Below are positions 23,193-62,242 of a DNA stretch of 64,000 nucleotides, one piece after another; the first letter of the stretch is position 1, and each line of letters starts with the position of its first letter. The DNA lies in the sequence record OM386663.1. One strand, given 5' to 3'. The position numbers were made by a program, and so were the translations under genes. This DNA is from Escherichia phage vB_EcoM_ESCO49. Below the pieces are notes generated by a model. The model was not told where the DNA came from. It saw only the letters and a list, made by a program, of their open reading frames with translations, and did not search any database.

Positions 23193-23355
23193 GGAGAAAC
23201 CACAATGTACGTCAGAGACATACTGTATAAGTCTTCCTATAAAGTATAACTCTGTAAAAAAGCCCTGTCTAAAAATACTCTTCGGTAGCGAAAGGAAGAA
23301 TACTTATAGCAGGGCATTATTATTATTTTAATTGAGAGAGAGTAAAATAACTTGG

Positions 23356-23428
23356 AGAATCCGAAGGGACTTGAACCCTTATAAACCTGTTTTGCAGACA
23401 GGCACATATCCATTTCTGTCACGGATTC
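23356..23428 (-). tRNA. tRNA-Cys (GCA)
   Basis: acceptor 7 bp, T-arm AAGGG-TTCAAGT-CCCTT, anticodon stem CCTGT/ACAGG, loop CUGCAAA. Confidence 0.7.
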
Positions 23429-23436
23429 GAAATTGG

Positions 23437-23525
23437 GGGAAGATACCAGACTTGAACTGGTACACCGATTTCTCAGCTACTGGCAGTTTAGCAAACTGCT
23501 CCCTTACCTTTAGGGTTAATCTTCC
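23437..23525 (-). tRNA. tRNA-Ser (GCU), long variable arm
   Basis: 89 nt; T-arm, anticodon stem GCAGT/ACTGC, plus-strand loop TTAGCAA. Confidence 0.65.
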
Positions 23526-23526
23526 A

Positions 23527-24309
23527 TTATCTCTGTAATGCGCTCTTCATTTCTGGTGTTGCAATAGTATCAATCACACCAGTTTTACAAGCATCATCAA
23601 ACCAGTCTGGTAAGATACCTGCTAAGAACCCATTGATATTCGTTTTAAGGTACTCTGCAATAAGGGCAGCTTCTTCTTCAATCATCTGCACAACTTCATC
23701 TGCATAAGCTGTAATCTTTGAGATACCTTCATTAATCTTACTAACAGCCTGATTAGCTAAATCAGAAACAGTCTCAAGACCCTTATCAATAGCGTCTTGT
23801 AAGTCACTTAACACACCATTAACACTGTCTAGTGTGCTGTTAATCATGTCAATAGCTTGCTGACCATACTCTGTAGCAACACCCATAATACCACTAAATG
23901 GTGTACAACCAACTTGTTCTCCTGCTGCACCCATAACATTGGAGTATCCCTTTGCTACCTGCATACGTGATGAAAACTCATCAATAGACTTTTGACCGTA
24001 GTCTGTTAGGGTCTTAGTAGTTGCTGTAGTGCTTGTAAGGCTTGTTGTAAAGCTGTTTAGAAGGACTGTTGTGAGTCCAGCAGCAACAAGCTTCTCCTTC
24101 ATTGTAGGGTCTGTTACAGAGCTAATAGAGCTTACAAGTGATGTAGAGGCAGCTACGGTTCCACCGAGAACTGCTGCACCAGTAATAAGTGGGTTAGAAA
24201 ACCCTCTACCGGTTTTTAAGAGATTAAAAATCTCCTTACCTTGTTCTGTCATCTCTTTCATTAAGCACCTTTGAAATTGGTACTCCATATCGGATTCGAA
24301 CCGATACAT
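23527..24309 (-). CDS. hypothetical protein
   Basis: 260 aa; Ser/Thr/Ala-rich middle; embedded in tRNA region. Confidence 0.4.
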   Translation of the reverse strand: MYRFESDMEYQFQRCLMKEMTEQGKEIFNLLKTGRGFSNPLITGAAVLGGTVAASTSLVSSISSVTDPTMKEKLVAAGLTTVLLNSFTTSLTSTTATTKTLTDYGQKSIDEFSSRMQVAKGYSNVMGAAGEQVGCTPFSGIMGVATEYGQQAIDMINSTLDSVNGVLSDLQDAIDKGLETVSDLANQAVSKINEGISKITAYADEVVQMIEEEAALIAEYLKTNINGFLAGILPDWFDDACKTGVIDTIATPEMKSALQR

Positions 24310-24356
24310 AACACAGATTTTAAGTCTGGCCTCTCTGCCAATTGGAGTAATGGAGC
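24281..24356 (-). tRNA. tRNA, anticodon read as UAA (Leu-type), standard length
   Basis: acceptor GCUCCAU/AUGGAGU (G1-U72), T-arm ATCGG-TTCGAAT-CCGAT, 4 bp anticodon stem, loop CUUAAAA, A73. Confidence 0.5.
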
Positions 24357-24362
24357 ATTGGC

Positions 24363-24434
24363 TGGGGATGTTGGAATTGAACCAACTTCTTCGATTTCAA
24401 AGACCGAGGTTTTAACCTTGTAAACTAATCCCCT
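24363..24434 (-). tRNA. tRNA-Gln (UUG)
   Basis: T-loop TTCAATT; anticodon stem with one G-U; plus-strand loop TTCAAAG. Confidence 0.6.
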
Positions 24435-24442
24435 TTAAATCT

Positions 24443-25000
24443 TTACTTTCTCAGTGGATGAATAAAGAATGCCAACATAACTCTTTCCCTTGAGAATGCT
24501 CTTTCTTCTGGGACAACACTTTTTAGTTTCCATCCAATATAAATTCTCCAGTAAAACTGTTTACCAAAGATTTTAATTGATGGGATAAAAGCGAATAATC
24601 CCCAAGCATTGCTATTCCACATTAGGAGATAACCAGTCTGATTATCTTCAGGGTCAGAACTTACGCTGATATTACCTTTCCACTTAGTAACATCTTTTAC
24701 ATCTCTTCCTAATACATGGTAAGAGAAGTTATAAGCTTTGTTTCTCCAGAGCCATCCAACTCTCTGCATGTAGACACCCAGCTTACCAATCTTTCTAATC
24801 TTAGCCCATCTTTTAACGTGGCCTTCATCACCATCAATCGGGTTGTCATAGGTCTCCATCCATCTGAATCCAAAAGGTAGATGCCCTTTCTTCTCACTGT
24901 AGAATGGAACCACGAAAGGTGCTAAGATGACTGCTAGGGTTGCTGCAAATGGTTCTAGTAAAGCTAGGAAAATCCATGAAGCATACTTCAAATATCTCAT
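24443..25000 (-). CDS. hypothetical membrane protein
   Basis: 185 aa; hydrophobic N-terminus; between tRNA genes. Confidence 0.4.
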   Translation of the reverse strand: MRYLKYASWIFLALLEPFAATLAVILAPFVVPFYSEKKGHLPFGFRWMETYDNPIDGDEGHVKRWAKIRKIGKLGVYMQRVGWLWRNKAYNFSYHVLGRDVKDVTKWKGNISVSSDPEDNQTGYLLMWNSNAWGLFAFIPSIKIFGKQFYWRIYIGWKLKSVVPEERAFSRERVMLAFFIHPLRK

Positions 25001-25022
25001 CTAAATAGCCTCTTAAAATTGG

Positions 25023-25098
25023 TGTTCCAAGACGGATTCGAACCGTCACTAATACAAGGTTTGAGCTTGCATCCTCTGCCAATTGGGATACTGGAACA
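25023..25098 (-). tRNA. tRNA, anticodon read as CAA (Leu-type), standard length
   Basis: T-arm GACGG-TTCGAAT-CCGTC perfect; acceptor 7 bp with one G-U; loop CUCAAAC; A73. Confidence 0.5.
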
Positions 25099-25101
25099 TG
25101 G

Positions 25102-25173
25102 TACTCACTAAAGGACTTGAACCTTTTTCTTCATCTTGTAAGGGTGATGTTTTACCATATAAACTAAGCGAGT
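25102..25173 (-). tRNA. tRNA-Val (UAC), tentative
   Basis: T-arm AAAGG-TTCAAGT-CCTTT; D-arm GUUU-AUAUGGUA-AAAC; anticodon stem with one mismatch; plus loop TTGTAAG. Confidence 0.5.
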
Positions 25174-25271
25174 GTGAAAGAGGTCTGAAGTTGTGCCGCT
25201 AACTCAACTCCGTGGAATTTGTTACGGTCTTCAGTTGACACCAGCGGTCTTTCACTTGACCTCTGAATTGG

Positions 25272-25345
25272 TGCTGCTCACAGGACTCGAACCTGCATTT
25301 CCATCCTTACAAGGGATGTGTAATAGCCAATTATACGAAAGCAGC
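25272..25345 (-). tRNA. tRNA-Thr (UGU)
   Basis: perfect anticodon stem CATCC/GGATG, loop CUUGUAA; T-arm and acceptor present. Confidence 0.7.
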
Positions 25346-25354
25346 ATTATTTGG

Positions 25355-25426
25355 AGCATCCAGAGGGAATCGAACCCTCAACCTCAGTTTGGAAGACTGT
25401 AATTTTCCCGTTTAAACTATGGATGC
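25355..25426 (-). tRNA. tRNA-Gly (UCC)
   Basis: T-arm GAGGG-TTCGATT-CCCTC; acceptor perfect; loop CUUCCAA. Confidence 0.6.
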
Positions 25427-25435
25427 ACTAATTGG

Positions 25436-25508
25436 TGGAGAAGCAGGGAATTGAACCCTGTACTTAAGTTTGCAAAACTTATGTTTTAACCATGTAAACT
25501 ACATCCCC
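25436..25508 (-). tRNA. tRNA-Ala (UGC)
   Basis: anticodon stem TAAGT/ACTTA, loop UUUGCAA; acceptor GGGGAUG with G3-U70. Confidence 0.6.
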
Positions 25509-25517
25509 AATGTTTGG

Positions 25518-25590
25518 TACAGGTGGAGGGAATTGAACCCATCGTCTTACTGATTAAGAGTCAGCCGCATAACCATTTTGCTACACCTGC
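25518..25590 (-). tRNA. tRNA-Lys (CUU)
   Basis: plus loop TTAAGAG; acceptor 7 bp; T-loop TTCAATT with short GGG/CCC stem. Confidence 0.55.
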
Positions 25591-25600
25591 ATTAATTTGG

Positions 25601-25674
25601 TACACCTAGAGAGATTCGAACTCACACTGAGCAGATTCTAAGTCTGCTGCCTCTACCAGTTGGGCTATAGGTGC
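25601..25674 (-). tRNA. tRNA, anticodon read as UAG (Leu-type), standard length
   Basis: perfect anticodon stem GCAGA/TCTGC, loop CUUAGAA; acceptor 7 bp (G1-U72); D-loop with GG; A73; 5 nt variable loop. Confidence 0.55.
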
Positions 25675-25750
25675 ATTAAACCTTTTTAGAGAACTTCTAA
25701 GAACCTAAGCAACAAGGTTCCACAACAAGCCGTAATAACCTTAGAAGCCC

Positions 25751-25773
25751 TCTAAAAAGACCTAAAAAGGTCT
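25751..25773 (-). terminator. weak terminator-like hairpin (AGACC-n6-GGTCT plus U-run)
   Basis: 5 bp stem followed by UUUUAG on minus RNA. Confidence 0.3.
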
Positions 25774-25930
25774 TTGCATAGTCTTGTTTAATCCGGTGAC
25801 TAGAACCTTTGGAGAGCTTGATATTATCTCTTCTCCGTGACACCTGCTAGGTGCTTTATGAGTGTGTACGACAATACACGCGGGATACCAAAGCAACACC
25901 CTAATGAAGCTTGGCTTTAAATCTTATTAG

Positions 25931-26018
25931 GCGGTAAGTAAAGGAGTCGAACCCTCACCGTATCTCTACAGTGGCAACTGTTTTCAAGACAGTTTGGCTA
26001 CCATTAGCCGCTACCTAC
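25931..26018 (-). tRNA. tRNA-Ser (UGA), long variable arm
   Basis: 88 nt; anticodon stem AACTGT/ACAGTT 6 bp, plus loop TTTCAAG; acceptor 7 bp incl. one G-U. Confidence 0.55.
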
Positions 26019-26034
26019 CCCTAATAAGACTTTG

Positions 26035-26114
26035 GCATGGGACGGAGGAGTTGAACCCCTTTGAAACGGTGTTGGAAGCCGTTGCTCATGCCTTAGAGTC
26101 TTAACATCGTCCCA
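26035..26114 (-). tRNA. tRNA-like gene, identity unresolved (aberrant core)
   Basis: perfect 7 bp acceptor ATGGGAC/GTCCCAT, encoded CCA, T-loop TTCAACT; internal stem AACGG/CCGTT with 9 nt loop CUUCCAACA; extra nucleotides before D-arm. Confidence 0.4.
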
Positions 26115-26261
26115 TACTATAATTCGAAGCTTACCGTATTATCTCAACACTGTAAAGCCCCTTCTCAGATTATTTACATGTTCTGGAAAACATGAGATAC
26201 AGACCACCTCCCTACAGGAAGACCCGCTTAGGTCGTCTAAGTAATCTGCTAACTAAATTGG

Positions 26262-26340
26262 TCGAGGCGGCAGGACTCGAACCCGCATACTCCACTTACT
26301 CGGTTAACGTCTGTTTAGAAGACAGATGAGATACGCCCCG
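26262..26340 (-). tRNA. tRNA-like gene, identity unresolved (anticodon-like loop CUUCUAA, Arg-UCU-like, displaced)
   Basis: acceptor CGGGGCG/CGCCUCG all paired, T-arm GCAGG-TTCGAGT-CCCGC; perfect TCTGT/ACAGA hairpin sits where D-arm is expected. Confidence 0.35.
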
Positions 26341-26680
26341 TAATTATCTTTAAAGACTCTCTTAGAAAGCCCTTAAAGATGCCCACCTTATTAATCATAC
26401 CGTGGGCTAGTACGCCAAATTCTTTGATGAGGGATTGGAAGACCTCACTGGTGTTTAGCCTATCAAGCTACTGCCAGAAAAACATTGTCGTTTGCATTTA
26501 TTTTAAATTTGCAAAATAGACGCTACGCAACGAAAACTATTCAGAATATGTACAACAAATTTCCCCACATTGTGTTACGTCTAACGCTCATGTATTGGTG
26601 TTTGAATTATACATATTATGAAGTATTTTAGTTACTATAAAGTGGTCACATCTCAATGTCAACAACTTTATTGAAATTGG

Positions 26681-26753
26681 TACTGGTAGGTGGAATCGAA
26701 CCACCGACGTTCCCTTATCAGGGGAGTGTTATAACCTTCTTAACTATACCAGC
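26681..26753 (-). tRNA. tRNA-Ile (GAU)
   Basis: T-arm GGTGG-TTCGATT-CCACC perfect; plus loop TTATCAG. Confidence 0.6.
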
Positions 26754-26757
26754 TTGG

Positions 26758-26831
26758 AGGTTCAGATGGGAATCGAACCCACATTCATAGGGCTTATGAG
26801 ACCCTTGCATTACCTTATCTGCGACTGAACC
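26758..26831 (-). tRNA. tRNA with CAU anticodon (Met or Ile2)
   Basis: perfect acceptor GGTTCAG/CTGAACC; plus loop TTATGAG. Confidence 0.55.
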
Positions 26832-26838
26832 ATTTTGG

Positions 26839-35844: not shown

Positions 35845-36344
35845 TTTACGAAGAAAGATACAAGATAGATTACCAGAAGACTGGTCATCATGTCTCCCTA
35901 AGAGTAACAAAACCGAATGGAGATACCGGTATCATAGCACATTTTGGTGGTGATTATTGGTACGGTACAGGTTGCTTTGAAGGCTACACTCAAGAATACT
36001 TGAAAGCTTTCTACAGAGACTTTACAAATGACTACAACAGGCTTGTTGACGAAAAGAATAAGTGCATTAAGCATGAACACCGTGCCAGAGGTTGCCTAAG
36101 TATTGTTATGGTACTGGCGTTCTTCTTAGCAATGTTACTGACAGTATCAGTAATTAGCTGCATAGCTCAAGATTTGACAATTACACAGATTACTGCAAAG
36201 CTACATGATATCTGGTACTTGTATGTTGTTCCTTTAGCTGGTATCATCATCTCACTAATGAGGTTCAGAGTTCATAAGAAACGACTTAAGGACTCTGAAG
36301 TTAAACTTGAAGAGGTAAGTAAAGAATGCAACCTACAATTATAG
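35841..36344 (+). CDS. hypothetical membrane protein (two predicted TM helices; holin not excluded)
   Basis: start at MIYEERYK overlapping upstream stop (ATGA); hydrophobic stretches LSIVMVLAFFLAMLLTV and LYVVPLAGIIISLM. Confidence 0.4.
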   Translation: MIYEERYKIDYQKTGHHVSLRVTKPNGDTGIIAHFGGDYWYGTGCFEGYTQEYLKAFYRDFTNDYNRLVDEKNKCIKHEHRARGCLSIVMVLAFFLAMLLTVSVISCIAQDLTITQITAKLHDIWYLYVVPLAGIIISLMRFRVHKKRLKDSEVKLEEVSKECNLQL

Positions 36345-36420
36345 CTTTATGTGTTCGTTTTGCAATCGCTGAAATGATTAACAAGGCAATCTTAAAAGAC
36401 GCCTATGGAGAGACTAAGTA

Positions 36421-36645
36421 ATGATTAAGACACCTGTACCAATTTTTGGATTTCCTTCTATAGAAGAATTTAAAGTTTATCTTGACAAAAACTTCTACAA
36501 CGAGCAGCCTGTTACTTTACTGAAGAGTGACTTATCAGAGCTTCTTGATATGATTATCAAGGCAACTCCTGAGAAGGAACCTGAACAGAAAGCTGAGAAG
36601 AAGACTAGTAAGAAATCCGATAAGAAGACTGAAAAGTCTGAGTAA
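36421..36645 (+). CDS. hypothetical protein with Lys/Glu-rich tail
   Basis: 74 aa; RBS GGAGAG. Confidence 0.35.
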   Translation: MIKTPVPIFGFPSIEEFKVYLDKNFYNEQPVTLLKSDLSELLDMIIKATPEKEPEQKAEKKTSKKSDKKTEKSE

Positions 36646-36697
36646 TAACTTAGGGGTTACTTGATAGCCCCTTTGTAGAAACTTAGAAGGTAGCGAA

Positions 36698-37108
36698 ATG
36701 AAAATTAAAGAAGTAGTCCAAAAAGCAATGCTTGACAACTCAACTAAAGATGAAATGTACAATGATATTTGTGATAAGTTGAATTGCTCAAGACATGCTG
36801 CTAAGATTCTTGTGCACTGTTTTATCTGGGAATGCTCAGAAGCTGGTGAGAATCTAAAAGAACCTGAAGTGAAAACAGTCCCTAAAGTTGGTAATGTATA
36901 CCGTCTTAAAGACTTCAAGACTGGAAAGATTGTTGCAAAAGGTGTAGTAGAGTCTGTCTATCATGATGGTAAATACTTACTTAAAATATTTGAATATGAT
37001 AGCCGCTATACACACTTGTGCGGTCTTACATTCTTAGTAACAGAAGAAGACCTCATTAAAAACAATGACAACAAGTTTGCAGTACCAGATTACCAAGTTT
37101 TACGATAA
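36698..37108 (+). CDS. hypothetical protein
   Basis: 136 aa. Confidence 0.4.
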   Translation: MKIKEVVQKAMLDNSTKDEMYNDICDKLNCSRHAAKILVHCFIWECSEAGENLKEPEVKTVPKVGNVYRLKDFKTGKIVAKGVVESVYHDGKYLLKIFEYDSRYTHLCGLTFLVTEEDLIKNNDNKFAVPDYQVLR

Positions 37109-37121
37109 TGGTGTGATAGCT

Positions 37122-37670
37122 ATGGAAAAAGATAACTTAAAAGAAGTTGAAGGTAACTACCTAGTCCTTGACTGGAGTGATATTCGAGAAGCATTATCCA
37201 AAGAAAGCCTTGACATACTGGAGCAGCTTGTCTTCTCAGTACGACATATCAGAGAAGTTAGGAATGGTAAAGAGCCACTTGAAGGAATCTTTGTAGAGAA
37301 GTCTTATCCGTTCTATGAAGACACTTTACAGAAAGTTAAAATGTACTTTAAACAGAAGAACCGTAAAGTGGTCACTATGGTATCTCTTGGTGGGCAGAGT
37401 ATGTCTATTATGGAAGATATCAATCCTAAGAGACCAAGTAAGGGTGTCTGTATAAAAATCACAGGGCATGAAGAGTATATCTCAATTGATGATTTTAGTG
37501 CACTCTGTAATGGTTCTGCTGTCTTTAATGGGTTTCACTATGATATCCGAGTGTACCCAATCAAGGGAGATGCTGTTATGATGCAGATATTTGATATCAA
37601 TGGTGGATTTACTCATTTTTATCAGACAACCAAGTCATCATTGAAGACAGTTTTAGAAAGTCTGATTTAA
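37122..37670 (+). CDS. hypothetical protein
   Basis: start placed at MEKDNLKEVEG to avoid overlap with upstream gene; start uncertain. Confidence 0.35.
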   Translation: MEKDNLKEVEGNYLVLDWSDIREALSKESLDILEQLVFSVRHIREVRNGKEPLEGIFVEKSYPFYEDTLQKVKMYFKQKNRKVVTMVSLGGQSMSIMEDINPKRPSKGVCIKITGHEEYISIDDFSALCNGSAVFNGFHYDIRVYPIKGDAVMMQIFDINGGFTHFYQTTKSSLKTVLESLI

Positions 37671-37680
37671 AATATCTTAA

Positions 37681-37708
37681 GAGCCTCCTTAATTGGGGGC
37701 TTTTTATT
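37681..37708 (+). terminator. terminator-like hairpin
   Basis: AGCCTCC/GGGGGCT stem followed by TTTTTATT, end of plus-strand block. Confidence 0.5.
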
Positions 37709-37710
37709 GA

Positions 37711-39360
37711 GTGAAAATTACGAAATTTATAATTTTTATAAAATTTTATCGGTTGTCCCAACCTCTGGGTCACCATCATACGTGAATAAAATATCTATCC
37801 TTCTTAACAACCTTCTTAATCTTACTCTCTATATAGTTATATAGTACTATATAGTATCTTAGTAACTATCTAGTGGTCTTAATAGCCTCTCTGTATAACC
37901 CTTCTAACAAGCCTTCTAACAAGCCCTCTAAACACTCTTCTAACAAGCCTTCTTAATAACCTATACAATCACCTTAACCATCCCTCTATACCCTCTTAGA
38001 AGCTCCTATACACCTCTTAATCTCTATGTTACCTATGATACCCTCTATAGGTGTTCACTAGGCACTACTAAGCCTCTATATAGACTGTTTTAACAAACTT
38101 AACAGGAATATCTTTACAGACCTTATCTCACAAGGCCTAACACGGTACTAACAAGGTATCTTATAAACCTGTTTATGCCTGTATTTTAGAAAGACTGTAT
38201 AGGTAATTATTCAGAATTTTAATTTTTTTTATAAAATAGGACTGTCAAGTCATTTTTTAGGGTCTTTGAAGGAACTCAAAAATATCTGTCTAGGATGTAT
38301 ATCTGCTTGGTAGCCCTTAACAGCCCTGTAACATCCCCTTTGCAAAATTTTAAAATATCATTAACAAACTCTTAACAACTCTCTCAAGCTCTTAACATCT
38401 CTCCAAAGGTCTTAACAAATTCTTAATAGTTTTAACAAGAGGGTAACAAATTTCTAACAAGTGCTGAAAAGGCTTTACAGAATCTTAACAGATGATTAAC
38501 AAGAGCTAACAAGTTAATTTTTAAGGGTTATTTTGTTAAGATAATTAACAAGTTCCTAACAAGTATTTAACCTTTTTAACAAGCTATTAACATGGTCACT
38601 ACTCTTTTCTTATCGTTCCCTTTCTCTCTTAGTGATTCTCTAAACATACCTTTTAAAAGCTCTCTATAGCTCCTTGTAAGCTCTTTTAAGCCTCTTCCTA
38701 GTAATTACACCCCAACTATACAGACACCTCTTTATAGAGCTTTACAGGAGCTTTTAAGGCTATGTCAAAGACTCTTACAAGGCTTTTACATGGTATTAAC
38801 AGAGATTTAACAAGGGGCTAACAAGTTGCTAACAAGCATAACTATGTAGGGATTGTTAAGAATTTGTTAAAAAGATGTTAAAGGGGCTAGCATTTACGTA
38901 ACTTTTACGTAACTTTTGAGTAACTTTATAGCCCCTATAACATACTTTTAAGACACTATCAAGCCCTTTTTAGTAGTTCACGAGATACTAGTCAGCCTAT
39001 AAGCTTATACCCTTATAAGGTTCTTTTAAGCCTCTAGAAAGCTTTATAAAGGGCTTTTAAGGGTGAGGTAATGCAATCCCTTAAGTTATATTGATAAGGC
39101 TGTTATAGGGCTTTATAGGGCGTTTTAGGGGTTGCCCTTCCCTTTCGGGTTATGGGCTTGTATTTAAGGGAAAGATTAGTTGATTTGATAAAAGGCTATA
39201 GAATAAGCTATAGAGTTATTGCTTTTTAAGGTATGGGATAGAGTCTATCGAACCAGTGGGGAGATTCTGGAAAGGTGAGGGAAAGGGTTGTATAAGGATT
39301 CGATAGACGTAAAAAAGCCCCATTTAAGGGGCTGTATAAAGGTATCTGGGGCTATTTAGC
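37711..39360. repeat. 1.65 kb ORF-free, G-poor region with at least 14 exact TAACAAG iterons plus CTATAG-rich and ACGTAACTTTT repeats; candidate origin or regulatory array
   Basis: no ORF of 60 aa or more on either strand; motif counted by eye (3 near 37905-37950, 1 near 38147, 7 in 38430-38580, 3 in 38800-38850). Confidence 0.6.
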
Positions 39361-53000: not shown

Positions 53001-53177
53001 TTACTTATTAAACATTCTACCAGAACCACCACACATAGGGCAACAACCTGCTCTTGTATAACCTTCTCCATTACAGTAGTAACATCTCTTGTGCTCTGCA
53101 TAGTACTTGCAAAGAAGGTAAACAAAAACTGCTACACTACCAAGTGACAGTAAAATTTCTATCCAATATGCTTGCAT
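53001..53177 (-). CDS. small hypothetical membrane/Zn-ribbon protein (not in ORF track)
   Basis: 58 codons: MQAYWIEILLSLGSVAVFVYLLCKYYAEHKRCYYCNGEGYTRAGCCPMCGGSGRMFNK. Confidence 0.3.
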   Translation of the reverse strand: MQAYWIEILLSLGSVAVFVYLLCKYYAEHKRCYYCNGEGYTRAGCCPMCGGSGRMFNK

Positions 53178-53508: not shown

Positions 53509-53532
53509 ATTAAAAAGGCTCCCGTAGGAGCC
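53509..53532 (-). terminator. rho-independent terminator
   Basis: GGCTCC-TACG-GGAGCC plus U5, downstream of NAMPT-like gene. Confidence 0.65.
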
Positions 53533-53547
53533 TCTTATCATATACTT

Positions 53548-55329
53548 TTAAAGCTGCTTGTCAATAATATTTCGAATATCACCAAGAGTTGTGTAACCGA
53601 ACTGCTCAGAGTCGCTAAAGACTAAACGTAAAGCACAAGCTGGGTGGTCAAGTACGTCTGCAAAACTCTGGAATCCATAGCCATCTACAGCTTTCAGCTT
53701 ATCACCATCCCACATAGGTGCTACACCACCAAAGGCAGACTTCTTAACACCACTATCTGTTTTAGGGTCTTTTGCAAGCATAATCTCTTTACCACCAATG
53801 CTTGCAAGAGTTGCTTTGACAGCAAATGCAAAGGTGTCACGAGTCATGTACTGGTAAGTGTAAGAGCCTACACCAAATACTACGTTAGAGCTTGCAAAAC
53901 CCATTTCATACAGACGATTCAGGATTTCGTTTGCACGTTCCAGCGTGATAGAGTCACCATAGATAAGGCCGATGTGCTCATCCAGTACCTTAAACCCTTT
54001 AGAGTTAATAGTTCCCCCAAAGATGTTGTACAGTGTCTTAATAGCTCCATCAATTTCAGCTACAGGACGTGTTACAACATTTGCAGAACCAACCATATAA
54101 GCATTCTTCAACATCACCGTATCAGCAACTTCAAAGTCTTCTCTGTCAACAACCATTTCGTAGCCTTCTGACAGTAGCCATCCAGCAATACCATAGTCGA
54201 TGTTTTCAAGCTTCATGTTCAGAACAGCATTCAACATTGTGTCGCTGGCTTCCAGCTTGCTTAGGTGCTCGTAATAAGCCTTCTTAGCACATTCTAAGTG
54301 GATTGCTTTATAACCTGTGACAATATGTACAGGGTCTCCAGAGTCAGGACGAATTACCAGTTTGCCATCACGTTCCATAATTTCTTTACGAAGTGCTGGT
54401 AAAATTTCTGACACAGCTCTCCAGAAGTTATAAGTGTCTGAAACAATACTTGCAATACCAGTTGGGTAAGTTTCTGTTAAGAAACGACGGAAGGTTTGCA
54501 ACTCACCTTTAAATCGTCTTTCTTCTTCAACCAACTCGTTACCACCTTCCCAAGCAATGTTTGCACACATTACAGAGTGTTCAGTGGCTGGTACAGAGCT
54601 TCCAATATCAGAGATTGGATAGGTCTGCCCATAGATACGTTTAGCCGTGTATACAGCAGGGAAGCTATCAGTCCCTTTAAAGCTGGTTAAGTGGCCTACA
54701 GCATTGAATGCGTCATCAGTAAAGCCTGACATACCACGCATAGCAAAGTCATGGCACTGATAAGGTAAATGCAAGTCATTGTCGCAAGTAAGGTCAGCCC
54801 ACTTCTTACAGATACGTTTGTAGTGTAATGCAATAGTAGCAATGGTGCAAGCTTTCCAAATCTCAGCAGAGAAAGCATCCTCCAGATACCCTGCTACCCA
54901 ATGGAAACCTGAAACAGTGTTCTGGAAGACAATCATTGGGACACGCATCGGGACAACTGTGCCTTCTTCTACAGCGTATACTTCAACCGGTAGATAACCT
55001 AAGTCGTGAAGTGCTTCCCAATGCTCTCGACCGATAGCATCTTTACCCAGAACACCATTCATGACTTCTAAGATTTCGTCAACTGCTTCTTTTTTATCAC
55101 GTTCAAAGAAAGTGGCGTTCCAGTGGTCTATTAAGTAATCTTTAACAAAACGTTGAATACCAAAAGCCACTACACCATCAATTGCTAAGGGGCTGTTAAA
55201 CCATTTATCACTACGTGGTGTCAGGTTGAACATCAAGTATTCTGTTGCACTAGGGTACTGGTAAACATGACCAGATTTGTAAGCATCTGCGTTTAAACCT
55301 GCTGGTACTGCATAAAGTGATTTAGTCAT
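53548..55329 (-). CDS. nicotinamide phosphoribosyltransferase family protein (NadV/NAMPT-like; Namat not excluded)
   Basis: 593 aa; motifs ADAYKSGHVYQYP, HDFAMRG, SVPATEHSV, IRPDSGDP. Confidence 0.8.
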   Translation of the reverse strand: MTKSLYAVPAGLNADAYKSGHVYQYPSATEYLMFNLTPRSDKWFNSPLAIDGVVAFGIQRFVKDYLIDHWNATFFERDKKEAVDEILEVMNGVLGKDAIGREHWEALHDLGYLPVEVYAVEEGTVVPMRVPMIVFQNTVSGFHWVAGYLEDAFSAEIWKACTIATIALHYKRICKKWADLTCDNDLHLPYQCHDFAMRGMSGFTDDAFNAVGHLTSFKGTDSFPAVYTAKRIYGQTYPISDIGSSVPATEHSVMCANIAWEGGNELVEEERRFKGELQTFRRFLTETYPTGIASIVSDTYNFWRAVSEILPALRKEIMERDGKLVIRPDSGDPVHIVTGYKAIHLECAKKAYYEHLSKLEASDTMLNAVLNMKLENIDYGIAGWLLSEGYEMVVDREDFEVADTVMLKNAYMVGSANVVTRPVAEIDGAIKTLYNIFGGTINSKGFKVLDEHIGLIYGDSITLERANEILNRLYEMGFASSNVVFGVGSYTYQYMTRDTFAFAVKATLASIGGKEIMLAKDPKTDSGVKKSAFGGVAPMWDGDKLKAVDGYGFQSFADVLDHPACALRLVFSDSEQFGYTTLGDIRNIIDKQL

Positions 55330-55374
55330 CTTTTAATCTCTCTCAAAATGGGGTTTTTAAGCCCCTATAAAGTT

Positions 55375-56280
55375 TTAATCAAGGTTTGCTACAGTAACTT
55401 GACCATAATGTGTTAAGCCACGGTCTTTAGCTTCCCCTAAAGAGTTTGTAGTGTAGATATGGTCAATGCCATTGTCAAGAAGGTTTTCAACATCTTTAGA
55501 GAAGATACCATGTGTTACATAAAGTTCCACACGTTTTGCACCTGCTTCACGAAGATGTTTCGCTGCTTCTATGAAGGTTCGACCACCATCACAAATATCA
55601 TCAAGAATCATGACAGTTTTATCTGTCAAATCAACATCATCAAGGATTCGCATACCAGTTATTTCACCAGTCTTAAGGTTGCGTACTTTAGACATTGTGA
55701 TATATGGTTTATCCACCTCTTTAGCAGTCTCTGCAATCTTCTTAGAAGCACCTGCATCTGGGGCTACTAAGTAATCAATCAGAGGGTCATTTGCATAGTG
55801 GACTGCAATCTCCTTTTGAGGAATACTTTGGAAGCAGTTGAAAAGGTTATCTGGAACGTAACTATGAGGGTCAACTGCACAGACTGCATCAAAACCCATT
55901 GCATTAACCTGTTGTGCAAACACTTTCAAAGCTGCTGCATCACCTTTAAACATGTGACGGTCGTAACGTGCATTTGGCAAATAGTAAAAGATAGCAGTCT
56001 TCATAGCAAACTTATGAGGTACTAAATCATCAATTGCTTCTTTAGCAAGTGCCACAGCAAACAATGTGTCCTTGTCATAGCCTTTTACAATAATAACCAC
56101 ATTGTTGATGGATGATGCTGCATAAGCAGTAAAATCAACAAGCTCTTGTGAAAAGTGTCCACCAATCTCACCAGAAGGGAACTGGATGATGTTAAACTCT
56201 TCTTCATGAGACCCTTTTGTCGGTGAATGAATTATAACACGAATCGATGTCTTCATAGTTTTCCCTCTCTTTATTCCCAA
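55375..56280 (-). CDS. ribose-phosphate pyrophosphokinase family protein (Prs-like; ADPR-PP synthetase not excluded)
   Basis: 301 aa; FPSGEIG, VAPDAGASKK, MILDDICDGGRT motifs; true start may be the internal Met (MKTSIRV). Confidence 0.65.
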   Translation of the reverse strand: MGIKRGKTMKTSIRVIIHSPTKGSHEEEFNIIQFPSGEIGGHFSQELVDFTAYAASSINNVVIIVKGYDKDTLFAVALAKEAIDDLVPHKFAMKTAIFYYLPNARYDRHMFKGDAAALKVFAQQVNAMGFDAVCAVDPHSYVPDNLFNCFQSIPQKEIAVHYANDPLIDYLVAPDAGASKKIAETAKEVDKPYITMSKVRNLKTGEITGMRILDDVDLTDKTVMILDDICDGGRTFIEAAKHLREAGAKRVELYVTHGIFSKDVENLLDNGIDHIYTTNSLGEAKDRGLTHYGQVTVANLD

Positions 56281-56678
56281 ATAACCTTTCTACGCTTTAT
56301 CTGGATAATGTTCTTTTTACAATATTCGATAGCTTCATCTATTGACCCAAAACTTTCCTTCTCCACAAAGAAGCGAACTTCACCATCTTGTATCTTTTGT
56401 TCTTCGGCTGTTGGCTCTTCAAGTATTTTACTTGATACTTCTCTGTTAATCTGCATTACATACTCGAAAGAGTTCTTCTTGTACCCAACTATTTTAATGT
56501 AACCCCTCTGGCGAAGACGATTGAACCGAGTTGACTTGTTTGTCTTGGATACATCTGGAAATTCCTTGTCATGGATACTACGTATCTGTGAGCAAGTAAA
56601 TGTTTTATCATAACCAAACTCATTATACAGGACTTTTAACAGTTCAATCATAACATCACTCCCAAATAACTTTTGCAT
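56271..56678 (-). CDS. hypothetical protein, paralog family member A1
   Basis: start placed at MQKLFGSD by alignment with A2; C-terminal ...EAIEYCKKNIIQIKRRKVIWE. Confidence 0.5.
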   Translation of the reverse strand: MQKLFGSDVMIELLKVLYNEFGYDKTFTCSQIRSIHDKEFPDVSKTNKSTRFNRLRQRGYIKIVGYKKNSFEYVMQINREVSSKILEEPTAEEQKIQDGEVRFFVEKESFGSIDEAIEYCKKNIIQIKRRKVIWE

Positions 56679-57120
56679 GTTTAACTTTAATAAGATGCTC
56701 TTTGCAGTGCTCAATAGCTTCATCTAGTGTTTTAAACATAACATCCGCGATAAAGTATCTTACGTCAGGTTGTACATCAACATCTTTAACCTCAGATAAG
56801 TTTGATTTTTGTGAACTCCCCAACTCTTCACGCGTGTTATTTAGCATCCTTGACAGTTGTATGTGCTTCTCCATAAAGGCTCGATTTAATTGATTAATAC
56901 TTAGTCTACCTTTGCTTTTTACCTGCCCTACAGTCAGCAGTACACCAGACTGTCTTAACATTGTTAGATACCCACGGGTATTACTGATTGACTGGCCTCG
57001 TATAAAAAGGCTATTCTCTCTTAATGCGTCAATTGCTTCGTTAGAGTCAAAAGTGTTTTCTGTCCCGAAGGTTTTGTATAAAATCTCTATTACGTGCTTC
57101 TGTAAATTGCAAAAAATCAT
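56656..57120 (-). CDS. hypothetical protein, paralog family member B1
   Basis: 154 aa; MIFCNLQKHVIEILYKTFGTENTF...HCKEHLIKVKHAKVIWE. Confidence 0.5.
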   Translation of the reverse strand: MIFCNLQKHVIEILYKTFGTENTFDSNEAIDALRENSLFIRGQSISNTRGYLTMLRQSGVLLTVGQVKSKGRLSINQLNRAFMEKHIQLSRMLNNTREELGSSQKSNLSEVKDVDVQPDVRYFIADVMFKTLDEAIEHCKEHLIKVKHAKVIWE

Positions 57121-57141
57121 AGTGTATTCCTAATCAAATGT

Positions 57142-57564
57142 TTAAACTTCTTCCCAAACAATACGCTTTCTTTTTGTTTGGATAACCGTTCTCTTACAAT
57201 GCTCAACTGCTGCCTCCATACTGGTAAAGTGTATGTCACCTATGAAGTATCCTACTTCACCTACACTAACCTCTTCATCCTTTTGTTGATGGCCATTACA
57301 ATTTAGAAGCACATTTTTAGCTTTGCTTTCATTGATTCTCATAAGATACTCATTATTAAATCCTGTCGCTCCAACAACACTAATGTACCCACTTTTACGT
57401 AATCTGTGAGACCAATTAGCTTTATCCCTGATTGAAGCATGTGGTAGATATTTATTAAAAACCTTAGTTAGTTGTGAGCCAGAAAATGTTTTATCATAGC
57501 CAAAATTTATATACAGAACCTTCAGAAGCTCAAACATGTTATTACTCCCAAATAATTTTTGCAC
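57142..57564 (-). CDS. hypothetical protein, paralog family member A2
   Basis: 140 aa; MQKLFGSNNMFELLKVLYINFGYDKTF...HCKRTVIQTKRKRIVWE. Confidence 0.5.
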   Translation of the reverse strand: MQKLFGSNNMFELLKVLYINFGYDKTFSGSQLTKVFNKYLPHASIRDKANWSHRLRKSGYISVVGATGFNNEYLMRINESKAKNVLLNCNGHQQKDEEVSVGEVGYFIGDIHFTSMEAAVEHCKRTVIQTKRKRIVWEEV

Positions 57565-57994
57565 GTTTTACTTTGATAATATACTTTTTGCAGTGTTCAA
57601 CAGCATCTTGGAGTGTATCAAACATCAACTCACCAATAAAGAATTTTATGTCTGGAGACACACCTACACCACTTAAGTCTTTTTGCTGCTCTTCACGTTG
57701 GTTTCGTGGCTCTTTAAGTAAATAGTCTAGCTGAATGTGCTTCTCAATAAAACCTCTATTTAATTGGTTGATGAGCATCCTCCCTTGTTGCTTAATCTGT
57801 CCTACCACGATGAGCACACCCCACTTTCTCATCTGAGTCAAGTAGTACCTGATGTTTGCTATTGGCTGTTTTTTGATGTAATCACTTCCTTCTTGTAGGG
57901 CTTCAATAGCTTCATTTGAGTCAAATGTGTTATCTGTCCCAAACTTATTGTATAGAATCTCAATAATTCTTTTTTGGAAGCTGCAAAAAATCAT
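57542..57994 (-). CDS. hypothetical protein, paralog family member B2
   Basis: 150 aa; near-collinear with B1. Confidence 0.5.
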   Translation of the reverse strand: MIFCSFQKRIIEILYNKFGTDNTFDSNEAIEALQEGSDYIKKQPIANIRYYLTQMRKWGVLIVVGQIKQQGRMLINQLNRGFIEKHIQLDYLLKEPRNQREEQQKDLSGVGVSPDIKFFIGELMFDTLQDAVEHCKKYIIKVKRAKIIWE

Positions 57995-58003
57995 AATTTT
58001 CTC

Positions 58004-58282
58004 TCAATCAAAAGTTACGTTTGTTACTGCCATTGCAGATTTGCATTTTACAGGGTCTACAACGTGATAAAGTACACTACAGTTACCTGTGCTGTCTGGT
58101 ACAGGCTTTACCCATTGCTGCTTTATAGTTGGTTCTCCTAAGTCTTTGTAAGAGCCGTCTGTAAAATTGTTTACCATCTCAAGTGCAATTGGTTCTGGGA
58201 CATGACCACGTATCATGTACATTTCACAACCATTACCACCATCGCTGACTAGTGGTAAAATCTCCCACTTTTCTTTAGCCAT
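58004..58282 (-). CDS. hypothetical protein
   Basis: 92 aa. Confidence 0.4.
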   Translation of the reverse strand: MAKEKWEILPLVSDGGNGCEMYMIRGHVPEPIALEMVNNFTDGSYKDLGEPTIKQQWVKPVPDSTGNCSVLYHVVDPVKCKSAMAVTNVTFD

Positions 58283-58790
58283 TGTAAGTCGCCCTATAAA
58301 CTGTCTCGAACTTCAACAGGAGAGATATTGCCAAATCTGTATAGTTGTTGTCAAGCACATCTGGCATATTATTTTTGATATATTTCTCTTGCTCTTCATA
58401 GGTCATCTTAGGAGTGCTTAGAAGGTTATCTCCTTGCTTCTGGTTATCAAGTTTAGTCTGGATAAACCAGTTTGCACAGTGATGCTCACCACCCTTTGTA
58501 ACAGGTTTGTGGTGGCCTAATGTGAAGGATTGACTACCTGTGTATCTGCAAAGTTTATTGAGTACTGTAATGGTGTTCTTCACAACAAAACATTCATACA
58601 GGTTGTCTATGGTGTAGTGTGGGTAGTAGCGGAATAGTGCTCTTTCACGAGTGCTATCACGATTCCAGAGAATCATGTGATTAGAGTTTGAAGGGTCATA
58701 TTGGTGGGAGTCAATGAACTCTTGGCGTTCCTCAAAGCTGAGTCTTAACACTGACATTGCAGCAGAACGTTTCAGGTTTGACAGGTACAT
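58275..58790 (-). CDS. putative HNH endonuclease
   Basis: 171 aa; LGHHKPVTKGGEHHCANW...DNQKQGDN His/Asn motif region. Confidence 0.45.
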   Translation of the reverse strand: MYLSNLKRSAAMSVLRLSFEERQEFIDSHQYDPSNSNHMILWNRDSTRERALFRYYPHYTIDNLYECFVVKNTITVLNKLCRYTGSQSFTLGHHKPVTKGGEHHCANWFIQTKLDNQKQGDNLLSTPKMTYEEQEKYIKNNMPDVLDNNYTDLAISLLLKFETVYRATYNG

Positions 58791-58797
58791 ATTATCT

Positions 58798-58830
58798 CCA
58801 AAATAAAAAGGGAACCTTTACAGTTCCCTT
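58798..58830 (-). terminator. rho-independent terminator
   Basis: AAGGGAAC-n7-GTTCCCTT plus UUUUAUUUU on minus RNA. Confidence 0.6.
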
Positions 58831-58841
58831 ATAGTATTTGT

Positions 58842-59162
58842 TTACTGAGCTACTTTCAAGATGCTTGTGAACGAGATTTCACTCTCATCCATAAACTCTT
58901 TTGCTTCTCCAGTAACTTTTACAAAGTTATCTAGGCAGAGAATCTTCTTATCTTTCTTGCTGTAGGTTAGCTTAACCTTTTCAATATCTTTCTTAGAGCT
59001 TTCCTCTTCATTAAAGAGCTTTACAGCTTCTTTGAATGGGAGGTATGAGCCATCATCATCGCTAATAAAACCTGTACCACAATAGTAGAAGTTATATTCT
59101 TTAGCCATAAACTGGCACAGTACGAAAATCTGTAATTTGCGAGTGTTATAAACTTTACCCAT
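58842..59162 (-). CDS. hypothetical protein
   Basis: 106 aa. Confidence 0.4.
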   Translation of the reverse strand: MGKVYNTRKLQIFVLCQFMAKEYNFYYCGTGFISDDDGSYLPFKEAVKLFNEEESSKKDIEKVKLTYSKKDKKILCLDNFVKVTGEAKEFMDESEISFTSILKVAQ

Positions 59163-59164
59163 GA

Positions 59165-59506
59165 TTATTTAGCCTTCTTATTACGTTTATGGTTACGAGC
59201 TTTCTTAGCTGCTCGTTTAATAGCTGCTGCACCAGACGGACGGTGGGCTTGTTTCTTACCACCTTTATCACGGCCTACATAGATACTTTTCATAACCTCA
59301 TTAGCCAGCTTCTCCTCCATCTTAAAGTTCTGCATAAGATGAGTCACATCAACACCAGTGAGCATACCTAATGAAGCTAGTGCTGCTTTTACTTTTGATT
59401 TAAAACTATTCCAGAGTCCCATTTCATATCTCTCTCTCAATCTTTTCACAAATGTTTTAAGTTCTCCTTCAGTGACACCAATGGTTAAGTTTGTTCTGTA
59501 GAACAT
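59165..59506 (-). CDS. hypothetical protein with Lys/Arg-rich C-terminal tail
   Basis: 113 aa. Confidence 0.4.
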   Translation of the reverse strand: MFYRTNLTIGVTEGELKTFVKRLRERYEMGLWNSFKSKVKAALASLGMLTGVDVTHLMQNFKMEEKLANEVMKSIYVGRDKGGKKQAHRPSGAAAIKRAAKKARNHKRNKKAK

Positions 59507-59547: not shown

Positions 59548-60033
59548 TTACTCTGCTCTCCACTGGCAATCACCTTGCCATCCATACTCTTTTCTCCAGA
59601 GGTTTTGGTTATCAGAACCACGATATGGTTTAGCTGTTGGTTTAGATAAATCATACTTGCCATCAATCACCACGTCAATGTATTTCATCACATCAAGGTG
59701 AATTTTTTCGTGTAGTTGAAAACCTGTCCAAAGCCATATAGACTTCTCTGGATAAACAGTTTTAATACGTTTACATATATTGGTAACCTCTTGAATATTT
59801 CTATCATCCAGAGGTTCTCCACCAAGTATTGACAAACCACTGACAGCATTATCACCCATTAGTTGGATGATTCCGTAGAGGTTTGCATAAGTAAACTCTT
59901 TACCAGCATTAAACTTCCAAGACTCCCTGTTAAAGCAGCCTTCGCAGTGATGCTTACAACCAGCTACGAAGAGGCTTACACGAACCCCTTCACCATTAGC
60001 TGTGTCAAATGGTCTAATCTCCATGTAATTCAT
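59548..60033 (-). CDS. nrdG: anaerobic ribonucleotide reductase activating protein (radical SAM)
   Basis: 161 aa; CKHHCEGC (CxxxCxxC) cluster motif; adjacent to nrdD. Confidence 0.8.
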   Translation of the reverse strand: MNYMEIRPFDTANGEGVRVSLFVAGCKHHCEGCFNRESWKFNAGKEFTYANLYGIIQLMGDNAVSGLSILGGEPLDDRNIQEVTNICKRIKTVYPEKSIWLWTGFQLHEKIHLDVMKYIDVVIDGKYDLSKPTAKPYRGSDNQNLWRKEYGWQGDCQWRAE

Positions 60034-60097
60034 CTAGTCACCTCACCAATAAAAAGGTGGTGTAAGCCTATCAAGGCCCACACCACCTTGTCAAGTT

Positions 60098-62242
60098 TTA
60101 CATAGAAACCCTATCCTTAATTTCTGCCATCTTAGCGTCATTCATTCGAGACTGACCTTTAATTTTTGTGAATGACAAGTACCCGCACACCCTGTTAATC
60201 ACAGAGATATCGTGTGAATGACAAACCTCACATTCTTCAACATCAGCCTTTGGTCTGTTACCACAATGTTCACAGATTGCTAAGTCAAAGTTAAGTCCCT
60301 GATAGAAACCTTTCAACATCCCTCTGGTAATACAACTTTTAAGTGCTGATAAGTTTTCTGGATTAGCCACCCTTACATACTGGATTCTGCCGCCTCTACA
60401 GATATGGAAGAATGGCTCTTCTAAGTCCTGCTTCTCAAATGGTGTAATGTCTGCTGCAACATTCATATGGAAACTATTTGTAAAGTATTCCTTATCAGAA
60501 ACACCTTTGATAACGCCAAACATATCTCTGAACTGTTTTAGCTGAGTTCCACAAAGTGATTCTGCTGGAGTGCCATATACCGCATACAAGAAGCCATCTT
60601 CGTTCTTAAACTCTTCAGTTTTCATGTTAATGTATGCCAGAACATCATATGCAAAACTACAGCTTCCAACTTCATGGAGTCGTTTACCCTCAGCAAGAAC
60701 AGATAGCTCATCAAGCGCAGTAACCCCAAAAGAGGCTGTGAAAGATTTCACGATATCCCAACCAACCTTATCAGTAGGCTTCTTAGTCCCTTTGTACAGA
60801 CCACCTTGCGTAAATGCAAGAGGGTTAGAACTTGCTGGCATATTAGCAATCATTTCGTAACGTTTCTTGTGGAAGCTGCGAATCATCTCTAGGTACTTAT
60901 CAAGCTCTTTCCAGAAATCTAAACCATTCTCTTTAGAATACTGGTAAATCATTGGTAAGTTCAAAGATACAGCACCAATGTTAGCACGACCAACGTAGAA
61001 CTCTTCCCCATTCTCGTTAAAATATGGAGATAAGAAGGCTCTGCAACCCATCGGGGAAATTACCTTACCAGAACGCTCAAAAGCCTCTGCTACAGCACCA
61101 TGACCAGATACACTTAAGAAATCTGGATACATTGCTTTAGAGCAACACTCAATGGCTTTACTGTACAGGTGTCCTTGACAGATATTCTCATCGTGTCTCT
61201 TCTGGTCATAAATATAAACCAGTTTAGGGAATACAACAGGCTTCTTGCTCTTACCTTGTCCATTCATACGAACATCTAGGAGGGTACTTGCAATCATGTA
61301 TTGTAGTCGGTTATCTTCATTGGCCATATCTGAGTCAAGTAACCCGAATGTCAAAGTTGTGAATGCAAAATCCCCACGGCTACAAGGCACAGTGTTTAGT
61401 TTCATTTCAAGTGACTGGAAACCTTGAGTCAGTTCAATCTGTAGCTGCTCCATGACATAATTGTGGTAATGTTCTTTAGGAATACCATAAGATGCTGCTT
61501 TCTCAGCATGATAGCGTAGAGACTTCTTAGCATATGGCACAAGTACCTTATCAATCTCTGCTAAAGTAAAACCACCAAATTGCTGTGCAGTTGCTGAAAG
61601 AACTACATCACCAATAACCTGTAATGCCGACAGTACAGACTTCGGTTCACAATATTCGATGCCAGACATTTCAAAGCCACCTTTCAGGACTTTACCAATG
61701 TCAAACAGACAACAGTTGATACCACCGAAAATTAGGTCTCTTAAATCATGGATATAGATAAACCCTTTTTCAATGGCTTCAAGTTCCTCTGGTGTTAAAT
61801 GGTACTGTTTAAAGATTTCTTTAGTCAGATAACCACGAATAATTGAGCCTTTTGTAGAAATTAAACTGCTGTCAAAGTTAGCATTCTCTCTGTCACCTAA
61901 GAAGAGTGTATCTTTGGTCTTCTGGTAAAGTTCATCCCAATTTTGAGCAACTTCTTTACGGTAATTTCTATATGTTGAGTAAGACTCATAAATCTCGTGA
62001 TTGACTTCTGCCAAAGCACCCTCAACAATACTGTGAATATCATTTACTGAAATGAGTAAATTATTCTGCTTAGTGGATTTTACCAGAACCCTCATAAATG
62101 CTGACTCAAGAGCTTGGGTAACATCTGGCGGGAGTTCTTTATACCCAACCCTATTAGCTGACTTTGTGACTGCTGTTAAAACTTTTTTGATATCAGGTTC
62201 TTCGAGTGAGCCATTCTTTTTAATAATCTGTACTTTGTTCAT
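60098..62242 (-). CDS. nrdD: anaerobic ribonucleoside-triphosphate reductase
   Basis: 714 aa; C-terminal Zn-ribbon CEHCGN...CEVC and glycyl-radical motif RVCGYL. Confidence 0.85.
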   Translation of the reverse strand: MNKVQIIKKNGSLEEPDIKKVLTAVTKSANRVGYKELPPDVTQALESAFMRVLVKSTKQNNLLISVNDIHSIVEGALAEVNHEIYESYSTYRNYRKEVAQNWDELYQKTKDTLFLGDRENANFDSSLISTKGSIIRGYLTKEIFKQYHLTPEELEAIEKGFIYIHDLRDLIFGGINCCLFDIGKVLKGGFEMSGIEYCEPKSVLSALQVIGDVVLSATAQQFGGFTLAEIDKVLVPYAKKSLRYHAEKAASYGIPKEHYHNYVMEQLQIELTQGFQSLEMKLNTVPCSRGDFAFTTLTFGLLDSDMANEDNRLQYMIASTLLDVRMNGQGKSKKPVVFPKLVYIYDQKRHDENICQGHLYSKAIECCSKAMYPDFLSVSGHGAVAEAFERSGKVISPMGCRAFLSPYFNENGEEFYVGRANIGAVSLNLPMIYQYSKENGLDFWKELDKYLEMIRSFHKKRYEMIANMPASSNPLAFTQGGLYKGTKKPTDKVGWDIVKSFTASFGVTALDELSVLAEGKRLHEVGSCSFAYDVLAYINMKTEEFKNEDGFLYAVYGTPAESLCGTQLKQFRDMFGVIKGVSDKEYFTNSFHMNVAADITPFEKQDLEEPFFHICRGGRIQYVRVANPENLSALKSCITRGMLKGFYQGLNFDLAICEHCGNRPKADVEECEVCHSHDISVINRVCGYLSFTKIKGQSRMNDAKMAEIKDRVSM

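Follow-up and report, generated by a model that had tools for sequence, protein, structure and literature searches.

Duplicated genes for predicted winged-helix proteins form an accessory cassette ahead of the NARP1 genes in a Felix O1-like phage

What are the four small, related genes that stand in a row on the minus strand of Escherichia phage vB_EcoM_ESCO49, how did they arise, and what might they do for the phage? The genes occupy positions 56271-57994 of a 64 000-nucleotide (nt) stretch of its DNA (record OM386663.1), the whole of which is referred to here as the window, and were labelled A1, B1, A2 and B2 as consecutive minus-strand open reading frames (ORFs) in order of transcription. 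A preliminary description, made from the letters of the DNA, had seen in them a tandem duplication of a two-gene unit encoding paralogous small proteins; all four ORFs are present, and the duplication is borne out by the homology of the products, by repeats in the DNA and by the tree of the family. As to their role, we favour, with a probability of roughly 0.45, the reading that the products are accessory nucleic-acid-binding regulators of phage or host expression that serve host take-over or counter-defence. The genes, with product lengths in amino acids (aa) and any ribosome-binding site (RBS), are:

57542-57994, minus strand: A1, 150 aa; RBS GAGAG 8 nt upstream of the ATG
57142-57537, minus strand: B1, 131 aa from the ATG at 57537; starting from the alternative GTG at 57564, it would be 140 aa long and overlap A1 by 23 nt
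56656-57120, minus strand: A2, 154 aa
56271-56651, minus strand: B2, 126 aa with the ATG at 56651 as start; the product would be 135 or 150 aa long with the alternative ATG at 56678 or 56723, respectively

A duplicated pair of paralogous genes

The alternation of two related types is evident from the identities between the proteins (A1/A2 57%, B1/B2 42%, A versus B 26-33%) and from the match of all four, end to end, to a single PHROG profile, phrog_29478 (PHROG 29478), with E-values of 9e-63 for A1, 2e-67 for A2, 2e-14 for B1 and 6e-16 for B2. The similarity between A and B is not compositional only, as BLASTP with compositional adjustment aligns A2 with B2 (E=2e-15) and A1 with B1 (E=6e-18) over almost their full length. 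Among 16-17 family members, the N-terminal L-Y, F-G and T-F and the C-terminal F...F...A-x-E-x-C...I..K....W-E are invariant, and the two shared motifs that had been noticed in the letters at either end of the proteins stand as LY..FG...TF and A[IV]E[HY]C[KR]...K..K[IV][IV]WE, (near-)invariant across the same members. In the DNA, the duplication is visible as two colinear repeat pairs with a period of ~880 nt:

57473-57668 paired with 56587-56782: repeat D1, the A1 C-terminus/B1 N-terminus junction against the A2/B2 junction; 196 nt, 75% identity, spacing 886 nt
57891-58016 paired with 57017-57142: repeat D2, the A1 N-terminus and leader against the A2 N-terminus and leader; 126 nt, 74% identity, spacing 874 nt

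A neighbour-joining tree that includes A3, a third A-type gene found in some related phages, and is rooted on a distant member of the family, P0015, takes the form ((A1,A2),A3),(B1,B2), which puts the separation of A from B before those of A1 from A2 and of B1 from B2. Duplication of an existing A-B unit predicts this order, and the recombinational joining of two diverged A-B cassettes would look alike. A hidden Markov model of the family, applied to every six-frame ORF of the window and of seven loci, recovered no paralogues beyond the known copies. A non-coding explanation of the block was discarded, Rfam giving only a sub-threshold snoRNA match and the inverted repeats being short, unremarkable and inside coding sequence.

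The B genes had initially been read from their longest ORFs, which gave products of 135-140 aa and overlaps of 23 nt with the preceding A. At each B (B1 and B2), however, GGGAG stands 7 nt ahead of an ATG that lies 4 nt past the A stop, and the overlaps are thus probably a longest-ORF artefact. The upstream GTG and ATG codons that open the long ORFs have no Shine-Dalgarno sequence and arise incidentally from the Arg/His-Ala codons of A, and the conserved MQKLFGS with which the long B products begin is A's [RH]AK[IV]IWE-stop in another reading frame; gene callers of public collections likewise give B1 131 aa. The likely product sizes are therefore 150 (A1), 131 (B1), 154 (A2) and 126 aa (B2). 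The GGGAG of each B coincides with the last two codons (Trp-Glu) of the preceding A, and because B's Shine-Dalgarno sequence sits in these codons, A and B are probably translationally coupled. The A-B junction, TGGGAG-TRA-N4-ATG, is kept in phage finno and in two metagenomic phages. As the terminal WE is also kept where no gene follows closely (B2, the copies in phages Mordin and Pr103Blw, and P0015), it is a protein feature and not merely a ribosome-binding site.

The genes are real and under purifying selection. Ratios of nonsynonymous to synonymous substitution rates (dN/dS) were obtained from orthologues in the window, Mordin, Pr103Blw and two metagenomic contigs (L005 and L006), and amount to 0.05-0.08 for the A type and 0.16-0.22 for the B and A3 types, at synonymous divergences (dS) of about 0.8-2; for the A1 orthologues in L005 and L006 the ratio is 0.08 and for B1 it is 0.16-0.17. 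The description of the duplication as 'diversifying' does not hold in the face of such strongly purifying values.

Predicted fold and family membership

AlphaFold2 models of A2 and B2 (mean predicted local distance difference test score, pLDDT, 71 and 77.5, respectively) both begin with a winged helix at a pLDDT of about 90, of topology H1-b1-H2-H3-b2-b3, in which a three-helix bundle is present and a beta-hairpin wing follows the recognition helix. Past the winged helix, both models run through a disordered, variable polar linker into a beta-beta-alpha unit (pLDDT 60-76) and a disordered basic tail, and the tail of each protein ends in [IV][IV]WE (IWE in A1, A2 and B2). The C-terminal unit is modelled with only moderate confidence and is unpacked against the winged helix, as would suit an element that takes up its fold when the protein oligomerises. 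Counted by hand on the alignment, A and B share ~50% identity over the C-terminal 36 residues and roughly 25% over the N-terminal part, and the C-terminal stretch holds the majority of the invariant columns. The recognition helices, which are polar and basic, are kept within the subfamilies and differ between them, with I-x-N-x-R-x-Y-L in A and K-x-N/T-W/R-x-x-R-L in B. The wing tip of type A is basic (KSKGR), and the isoelectric points of the four proteins fall between 8.5 and 9.3. As modelled, the family is one of two-domain winged-helix proteins in which the kind of winged helix is itself known and the C-terminal module is new, and the A and B proteins are probably DNA-binding via the winged helix.

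The family had not been recognised from the letters, and Pfam, NCBIfam, PADLOC and PDB sequence searches likewise assign it to no characterised family, the PHROG entry being labelled 'unknown function'. The four proteins and P0015 gave no significant match in Pfam, NCBIfam or PADLOC scans; the MarR, PadR, Fur, BlaI/MecI and HxlR profiles gave no match in Pfam/NCBIfam even at E<=1, and none in the PDB profile search. The Foldseek E-values were all >0.02. A literature search found nothing on the A/B family, and queries combining Felixounavirus with winged helix or accessory genes were uninformative.

Several identities were considered and rejected. The only result of the PDB profile search, a marginal local match of the C-terminal motif to the SH2 domains of NCK1/2 (E=0.04-0.08, ~40 residues), was put down to a short beta-beta-alpha resemblance, and the C-terminal unit lacks the length of an SH2 fold (~100 aa). 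Membership of the Fur family is contradicted by the absence of the metal ligands: the C-terminal unit has a single invariant Cys and a single invariant Glu, and several members have Tyr in place of the adjacent His. Nor is the unit an HNH/beta-beta-alpha-Me nuclease or a zinc finger: its invariant residues are F, F, A, E, C, I and K, no His or Asn is invariant, and no HNH profile matches. A toxin-antitoxin or other catalogued defence or anti-defence module was set aside as A and B are paralogous to each other and match nothing in PADLOC.

The family is small. About 13 family clusters are found across ~5.8 billion clustered proteins. A HMMER profile search of 1.84 billion representatives returned four family clusters, all from Ounavirinae-like phages, and added the distant P0015 (125 aa); two further matches of this search were repeat proteins and were dismissed as spurious. 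IMG/VR yielded nothing, whether scanned with the family patterns or with P0015, and a further protein search with P0015 as query returned only P0015 itself.

An exchangeable cassette ahead of the NARP1 genes

The window phage is a Felixounavirus (Felix O1-like); across 55300-59200 it shares 99.8% identity with Escherichia phage vB_EcoM_ESCO50 and 91-97% with nine further records in which the block is complete. With A1 as query, tblastn placed the family in 15 of 50,697 phage records, all Ounavirinae. Among the 255 related records collected by blastn across the locus, ten carry the four-gene block, and four (Mordin, Henu11, KMM2 and Pr103Blw) carry an A2-like gene followed by A3, with ordinary spacers and no B. 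In two metagenomic Ounavirinae contigs the same slot is filled by one A1-B1 pair alone, with the same tight junction. A precise empty site is present in all sampled slot-spanning records, including FelixO1 (765 nt versus 2501 nt in the window), and the cassette is missing from about 94% of the related phages. The two-component module proposed in the preliminary description thus stands in part: the two independent contigs with one A1-B1 pair indicate that A-B acts as a unit, whereas pairing is not obligatory, A2-A3 occurring without B in Mordin and Pr103Blw and P0015 being a singleton.

Cassette type is uncoupled from the phage backbone. Adps, the product of the Prs-like gene that follows B2, is 98% identical between L005 and Mordin, yet L005 carries A1-B1 and Mordin A2-A3; the Adps of Pr103Blw shares 96-98% identity with its counterparts in the window and in phage heid, yet Pr103Blw carries A2-A3. 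The boundaries of the cassette in the window are:

57991-58005, minus strand: upstream boundary, RBS and start of A1, GAGAGAAAATTATGA; resembles the downstream boundary and heid's single empty-site copy
56253-56269, minus strand: downstream boundary, RBS and start of adps, GAGAGGGAAAACTATGA

The empty site of heid holds one RBS/start copy, GAGAGAGAAAACTATGA. Similar boundaries on a filled site and a single copy on an empty one are the expected leftover of exchange or deletion at gene boundaries. The GC content of 56001-58000 (36.1%, against an average of about 39%) is among the lowest in the window and would fit a horizontally exchanged accessory segment.

A slot of this kind might also be filled by a selfish or neutral element, kept by hot-spot recombination with little or no benefit to the phage, like the free-standing mobile genes of T4-like and Felix O1-like genomes. 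The precise presence or absence at an intergenic slot with similar RBS/start boundaries speaks for such an element, and the low frequency of the cassette, its GC content of 36% against about 39% and the HNH-like gene two genes upstream point the same way. The cassette proteins, however, have no conserved nuclease motif (there is no catalytic His or Asn in the beta-beta-alpha unit) and match no nuclease family, and purifying selection across phage genera at a dS of about 1-2 argues for a selected protein function. We consider a selfish or neutral cassette very unlikely.

The window has a second variable slot, between nrdG (59548-60033) and nrdD (60098-62242) on the minus strand, which here contains only a terminator-like hairpin at 60054-60089. 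Elsewhere this slot holds one small gene in finno, two in Pr103Blw, four in heid and an HNH_3 endonuclease gene in L006.

The block had been described as having the Prs-like/NAMPT-like pair on one side and the HNH-like and nrd genes on the other, and this placement is correct. In minus-strand order, a promoter-like site and a hairpin are followed by a 171-aa HNH-like gene, a 92-aa gene, A1, B1, A2, B2, adps, namat and a terminator-like hairpin. The limits of the unit and its two downstream genes are:

58808-58830, minus strand: upstream limit of the unit, a terminator-like hairpin, with a promoter-like site at 58859-58831 before it
55375-56256, minus strand: adps, Prs-like, 293 aa from the ATG, directly downstream of B2; Pfam Pribosyltran and Pribosyl_synth; first NARP1 gene
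53548-55329, minus strand: namat, NAMPT-like, 593 aa; Pfam NAPRTase and NAMPT_N; second NARP1 gene
53513-53536, minus strand: downstream limit of the unit, a terminator-like hairpin after namat

In Mordin, a terminator is annotated at the position that corresponds to the hairpin at 58808-58830. No terminator-like site was found between 58808 and 53536, and the cassette therefore lies in one apparent transcription unit with adps and namat.

In Felixounavirus Bas63, genes 79-80 constitute NARP1 (Adps and Namat), by which NAD+ is rebuilt from ADP-ribose (ADPR) and nicotinamide and SIR2-HerA is overcome (bioRxiv 10.1101/2024.02.11.579819). NARP1 operons pick up extra genes, for example that of the Macro-domain phosphatase Adpp, NARP1-AP (bioRxiv 10.64898/2026.01.28.702374). 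Judged by sequence, the Prs-like/NAMPT-like pair of the window is this NARP1 counter-defence pathway, and the names under which the two genes appear in public records, 'ribose-phosphate pyrophosphokinase' and 'nicotinamide phosphoribosyltransferase', are probably functionally wrong.

Other features of the unit and of the window were noted in passing. The element at 58808-58859 (minus strand) consists of a promoter-like TTGAAA-17-TACTAT with a strong terminator-like hairpin directly behind it, after which comes the RBS of the following gene. Across Felixounavirus and Mooglevirus, the hairpin and its flanking bases are near-invariant, and the -10-like hexamer differs in Mordin. The element could act as terminator and promoter in one, or as a regulated leader. 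The 171-aa ORF at 58275-58790 (minus strand), the first gene of the unit, contains the HNH-like motif GHHKPVTKGGEHH...NW, gives no Pfam match above threshold and a weak match to DUF7167, is called 'HNH endonuclease' in the ESCO50 annotation, and occurs in phages with and without the cassette. On L007, the contig that holds P0015, a 178-aa gene without a Pfam match stands between Adps-like and Namat-like genes (1016-4215), and a 246-aa Macro-domain gene (12505-13245) lies ~2 kb downstream of P0015; either of the two could be related to the NARP1-AP (Adpp) extension. A 58-aa ORF of the window at 53001-53177 (minus strand) has an N-terminal hydrophobic segment and the sequences CYYCNGEG and CPMCGGSG (CxxCxGxG), which resemble a DnaJ-type zinc-finger repeat, and no Pfam match. 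Nineteen tRNA genes are clustered at 23353-27708 (minus strand), as is typical of Felix O1-like phages, and GC and AT skew flip sign at ~30000-38000 relative to the flanks, which indicates an opposite-strand gene block that is probably a divergent transcription module.

Possible roles and comparison with known systems

On the favoured reading, the locus can be accounted for as follows. An ancestral gene would have duplicated to give an A type and a B type, which then became a tightly linked pair, and the whole pair would have been duplicated, or two diverged pairs joined, to give A1-B1-A2-B2. The winged helix would bind nucleic acid, the shared C-terminal unit would oligomerise into homo-oligomers or A/B hetero-oligomers, and the differing recognition helices of A and B would confer different target specificities. 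The proteins appear to share their transcription unit with the NARP1 NAD+-reconstitution genes, and the cassette, dispensable for the basic lytic cycle, is swapped between backbones by recombination at a fixed position, with the 92-aa gene on one side and adps on the other. The analysis shows that the genes are real, and it shows their homology, duplication, predicted fold, distribution and operon context, whereas DNA binding, oligomerisation and biological role are what we infer for these proteins; a role of this kind is plausible, and nothing so far points to a surprising mechanism.

Several observations weigh against such a regulatory role or against its tie to NARP1. No DNA target, operator or dedicated promoter was found for the proteins, phages with and without the cassette have essentially the same sequence in the unit's sole promoter-like region, and the wing tip of B1 is not basic. 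NARP1 occurs without the cassette in about 94% of the related phages, which weakens a tight link between the two. Bas63 is absent from the 15 family-holding tblastn records, its membership of the searched collection being unconfirmed. P0015, finally, is a singleton in a more distant Ounavirinae-like contig, where it lies downstream of rIIB and away from the Prs/NAMPT genes, and given this location the NARP1 link of the family may be positional only.

The promoter-like region bears equally on the possibility that A and B are Aca-like autoregulators, which would repress or tune a strong early promoter of the NARP1 operon as the helix-turn-helix (HTH) Aca proteins do for anti-CRISPR operons. Small HTH-type proteins within the apparent unit of proven counter-defence genes are what this explanation would lead one to expect. 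Yet about 94% of the related phages run the same operon with a near-identical promoter/terminator region and without A/B, no cassette-specific inverted repeat was seen at the promoter region (58831-58859), and four paralogues are excessive for autoregulation. We consider autoregulation of this type very unlikely.

Another alternative is that the proteins are direct inhibitors or decoys of host anti-phage defence, with the winged helix serving as a protein-binding scaffold or as a DNA-competing or DNA-mimicking module, the paralogues directed against defence variants, and the presence of zero, two or four genes reflecting an arms race. The cassette is accessory, patchy and swapped between backbones, it shares its apparent unit with NARP1, and NARP1 operons recruit counter-defence genes such as Adpp; the early region that holds P0015 also contains PNKP-like and Macro-domain genes, and the proteins are small, as many anti-defence proteins are. 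All of this, however, is guilt by association: the proteins show no similarity to known defence or anti-defence families, their fold is typical of DNA-binding regulators, and the strong purifying selection on A (dN/dS 0.05-0.08) is unlike an arms race. Direct inhibition is unlikely in our judgement. A further and rather speculative proposal, which we would not expect to be correct, is that the A/B pairs constitute a new kind of counter-defence factor that the NARP1 operon has recruited. Their hetero-oligomers might silence or occupy a host or prophage defence locus, or neutralise a nucleic-acid-sensing or NAD+-linked defence beyond the reach of NARP1 alone, and each of the paralogue sets A1-B1, A2-A3 and A1-B1-A2-B2 might match a different range of host defences.

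Diagnostics and therapy both make use of Felix O1-like phages, whose NARP1 operon serves as a model of metabolic counter-defence. The cassette is a well-defined candidate determinant of host range or counter-defence, in a fixed slot just ahead of that operon, and near-isogenic natural comparators exist in ESCO50 and finno with the cassette and in heid and FelixO1 without it. Should the proteins be merely accessory regulators, they would still represent an orphan winged-helix family with a new C-terminal module and a clean example of birth and death in a translationally coupled gene pair.

The accessory regulators favoured here can be set beside known systems. PHROG 29478 is the A/B family itself, its profile being dominated by type A (212-227 bits versus 55-60 bits for B). 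Winged-helix regulators of the MarR, PadR, SarX and Fur types differ from A and B, which belong to none of these profiles and whose beta-beta-alpha unit and basic IWE tail have no counterpart there. Like Aca proteins, A and B are small HTH proteins inside a phage counter-defence operon; unlike them, they are encoded upstream of the effector genes rather than downstream, and they share no sequence similarity with them. The accessory genes associated with NARP1 (Adpp, NARP1-AP) are similarly extra genes on an adps-namat operon in some phages, whereas A and B have a winged helix in place of a Macro or other enzymatic domain and no evident link to ADPR chemistry. An analogy may also be drawn with SinR/SinI, where, as proposed here for A and B, neighbouring paralogues have a conserved oligomerisation module in common and diverge in the part that binds DNA; SinI, however, has no DNA-binding domain, whereas B keeps a complete and confidently predicted winged helix.

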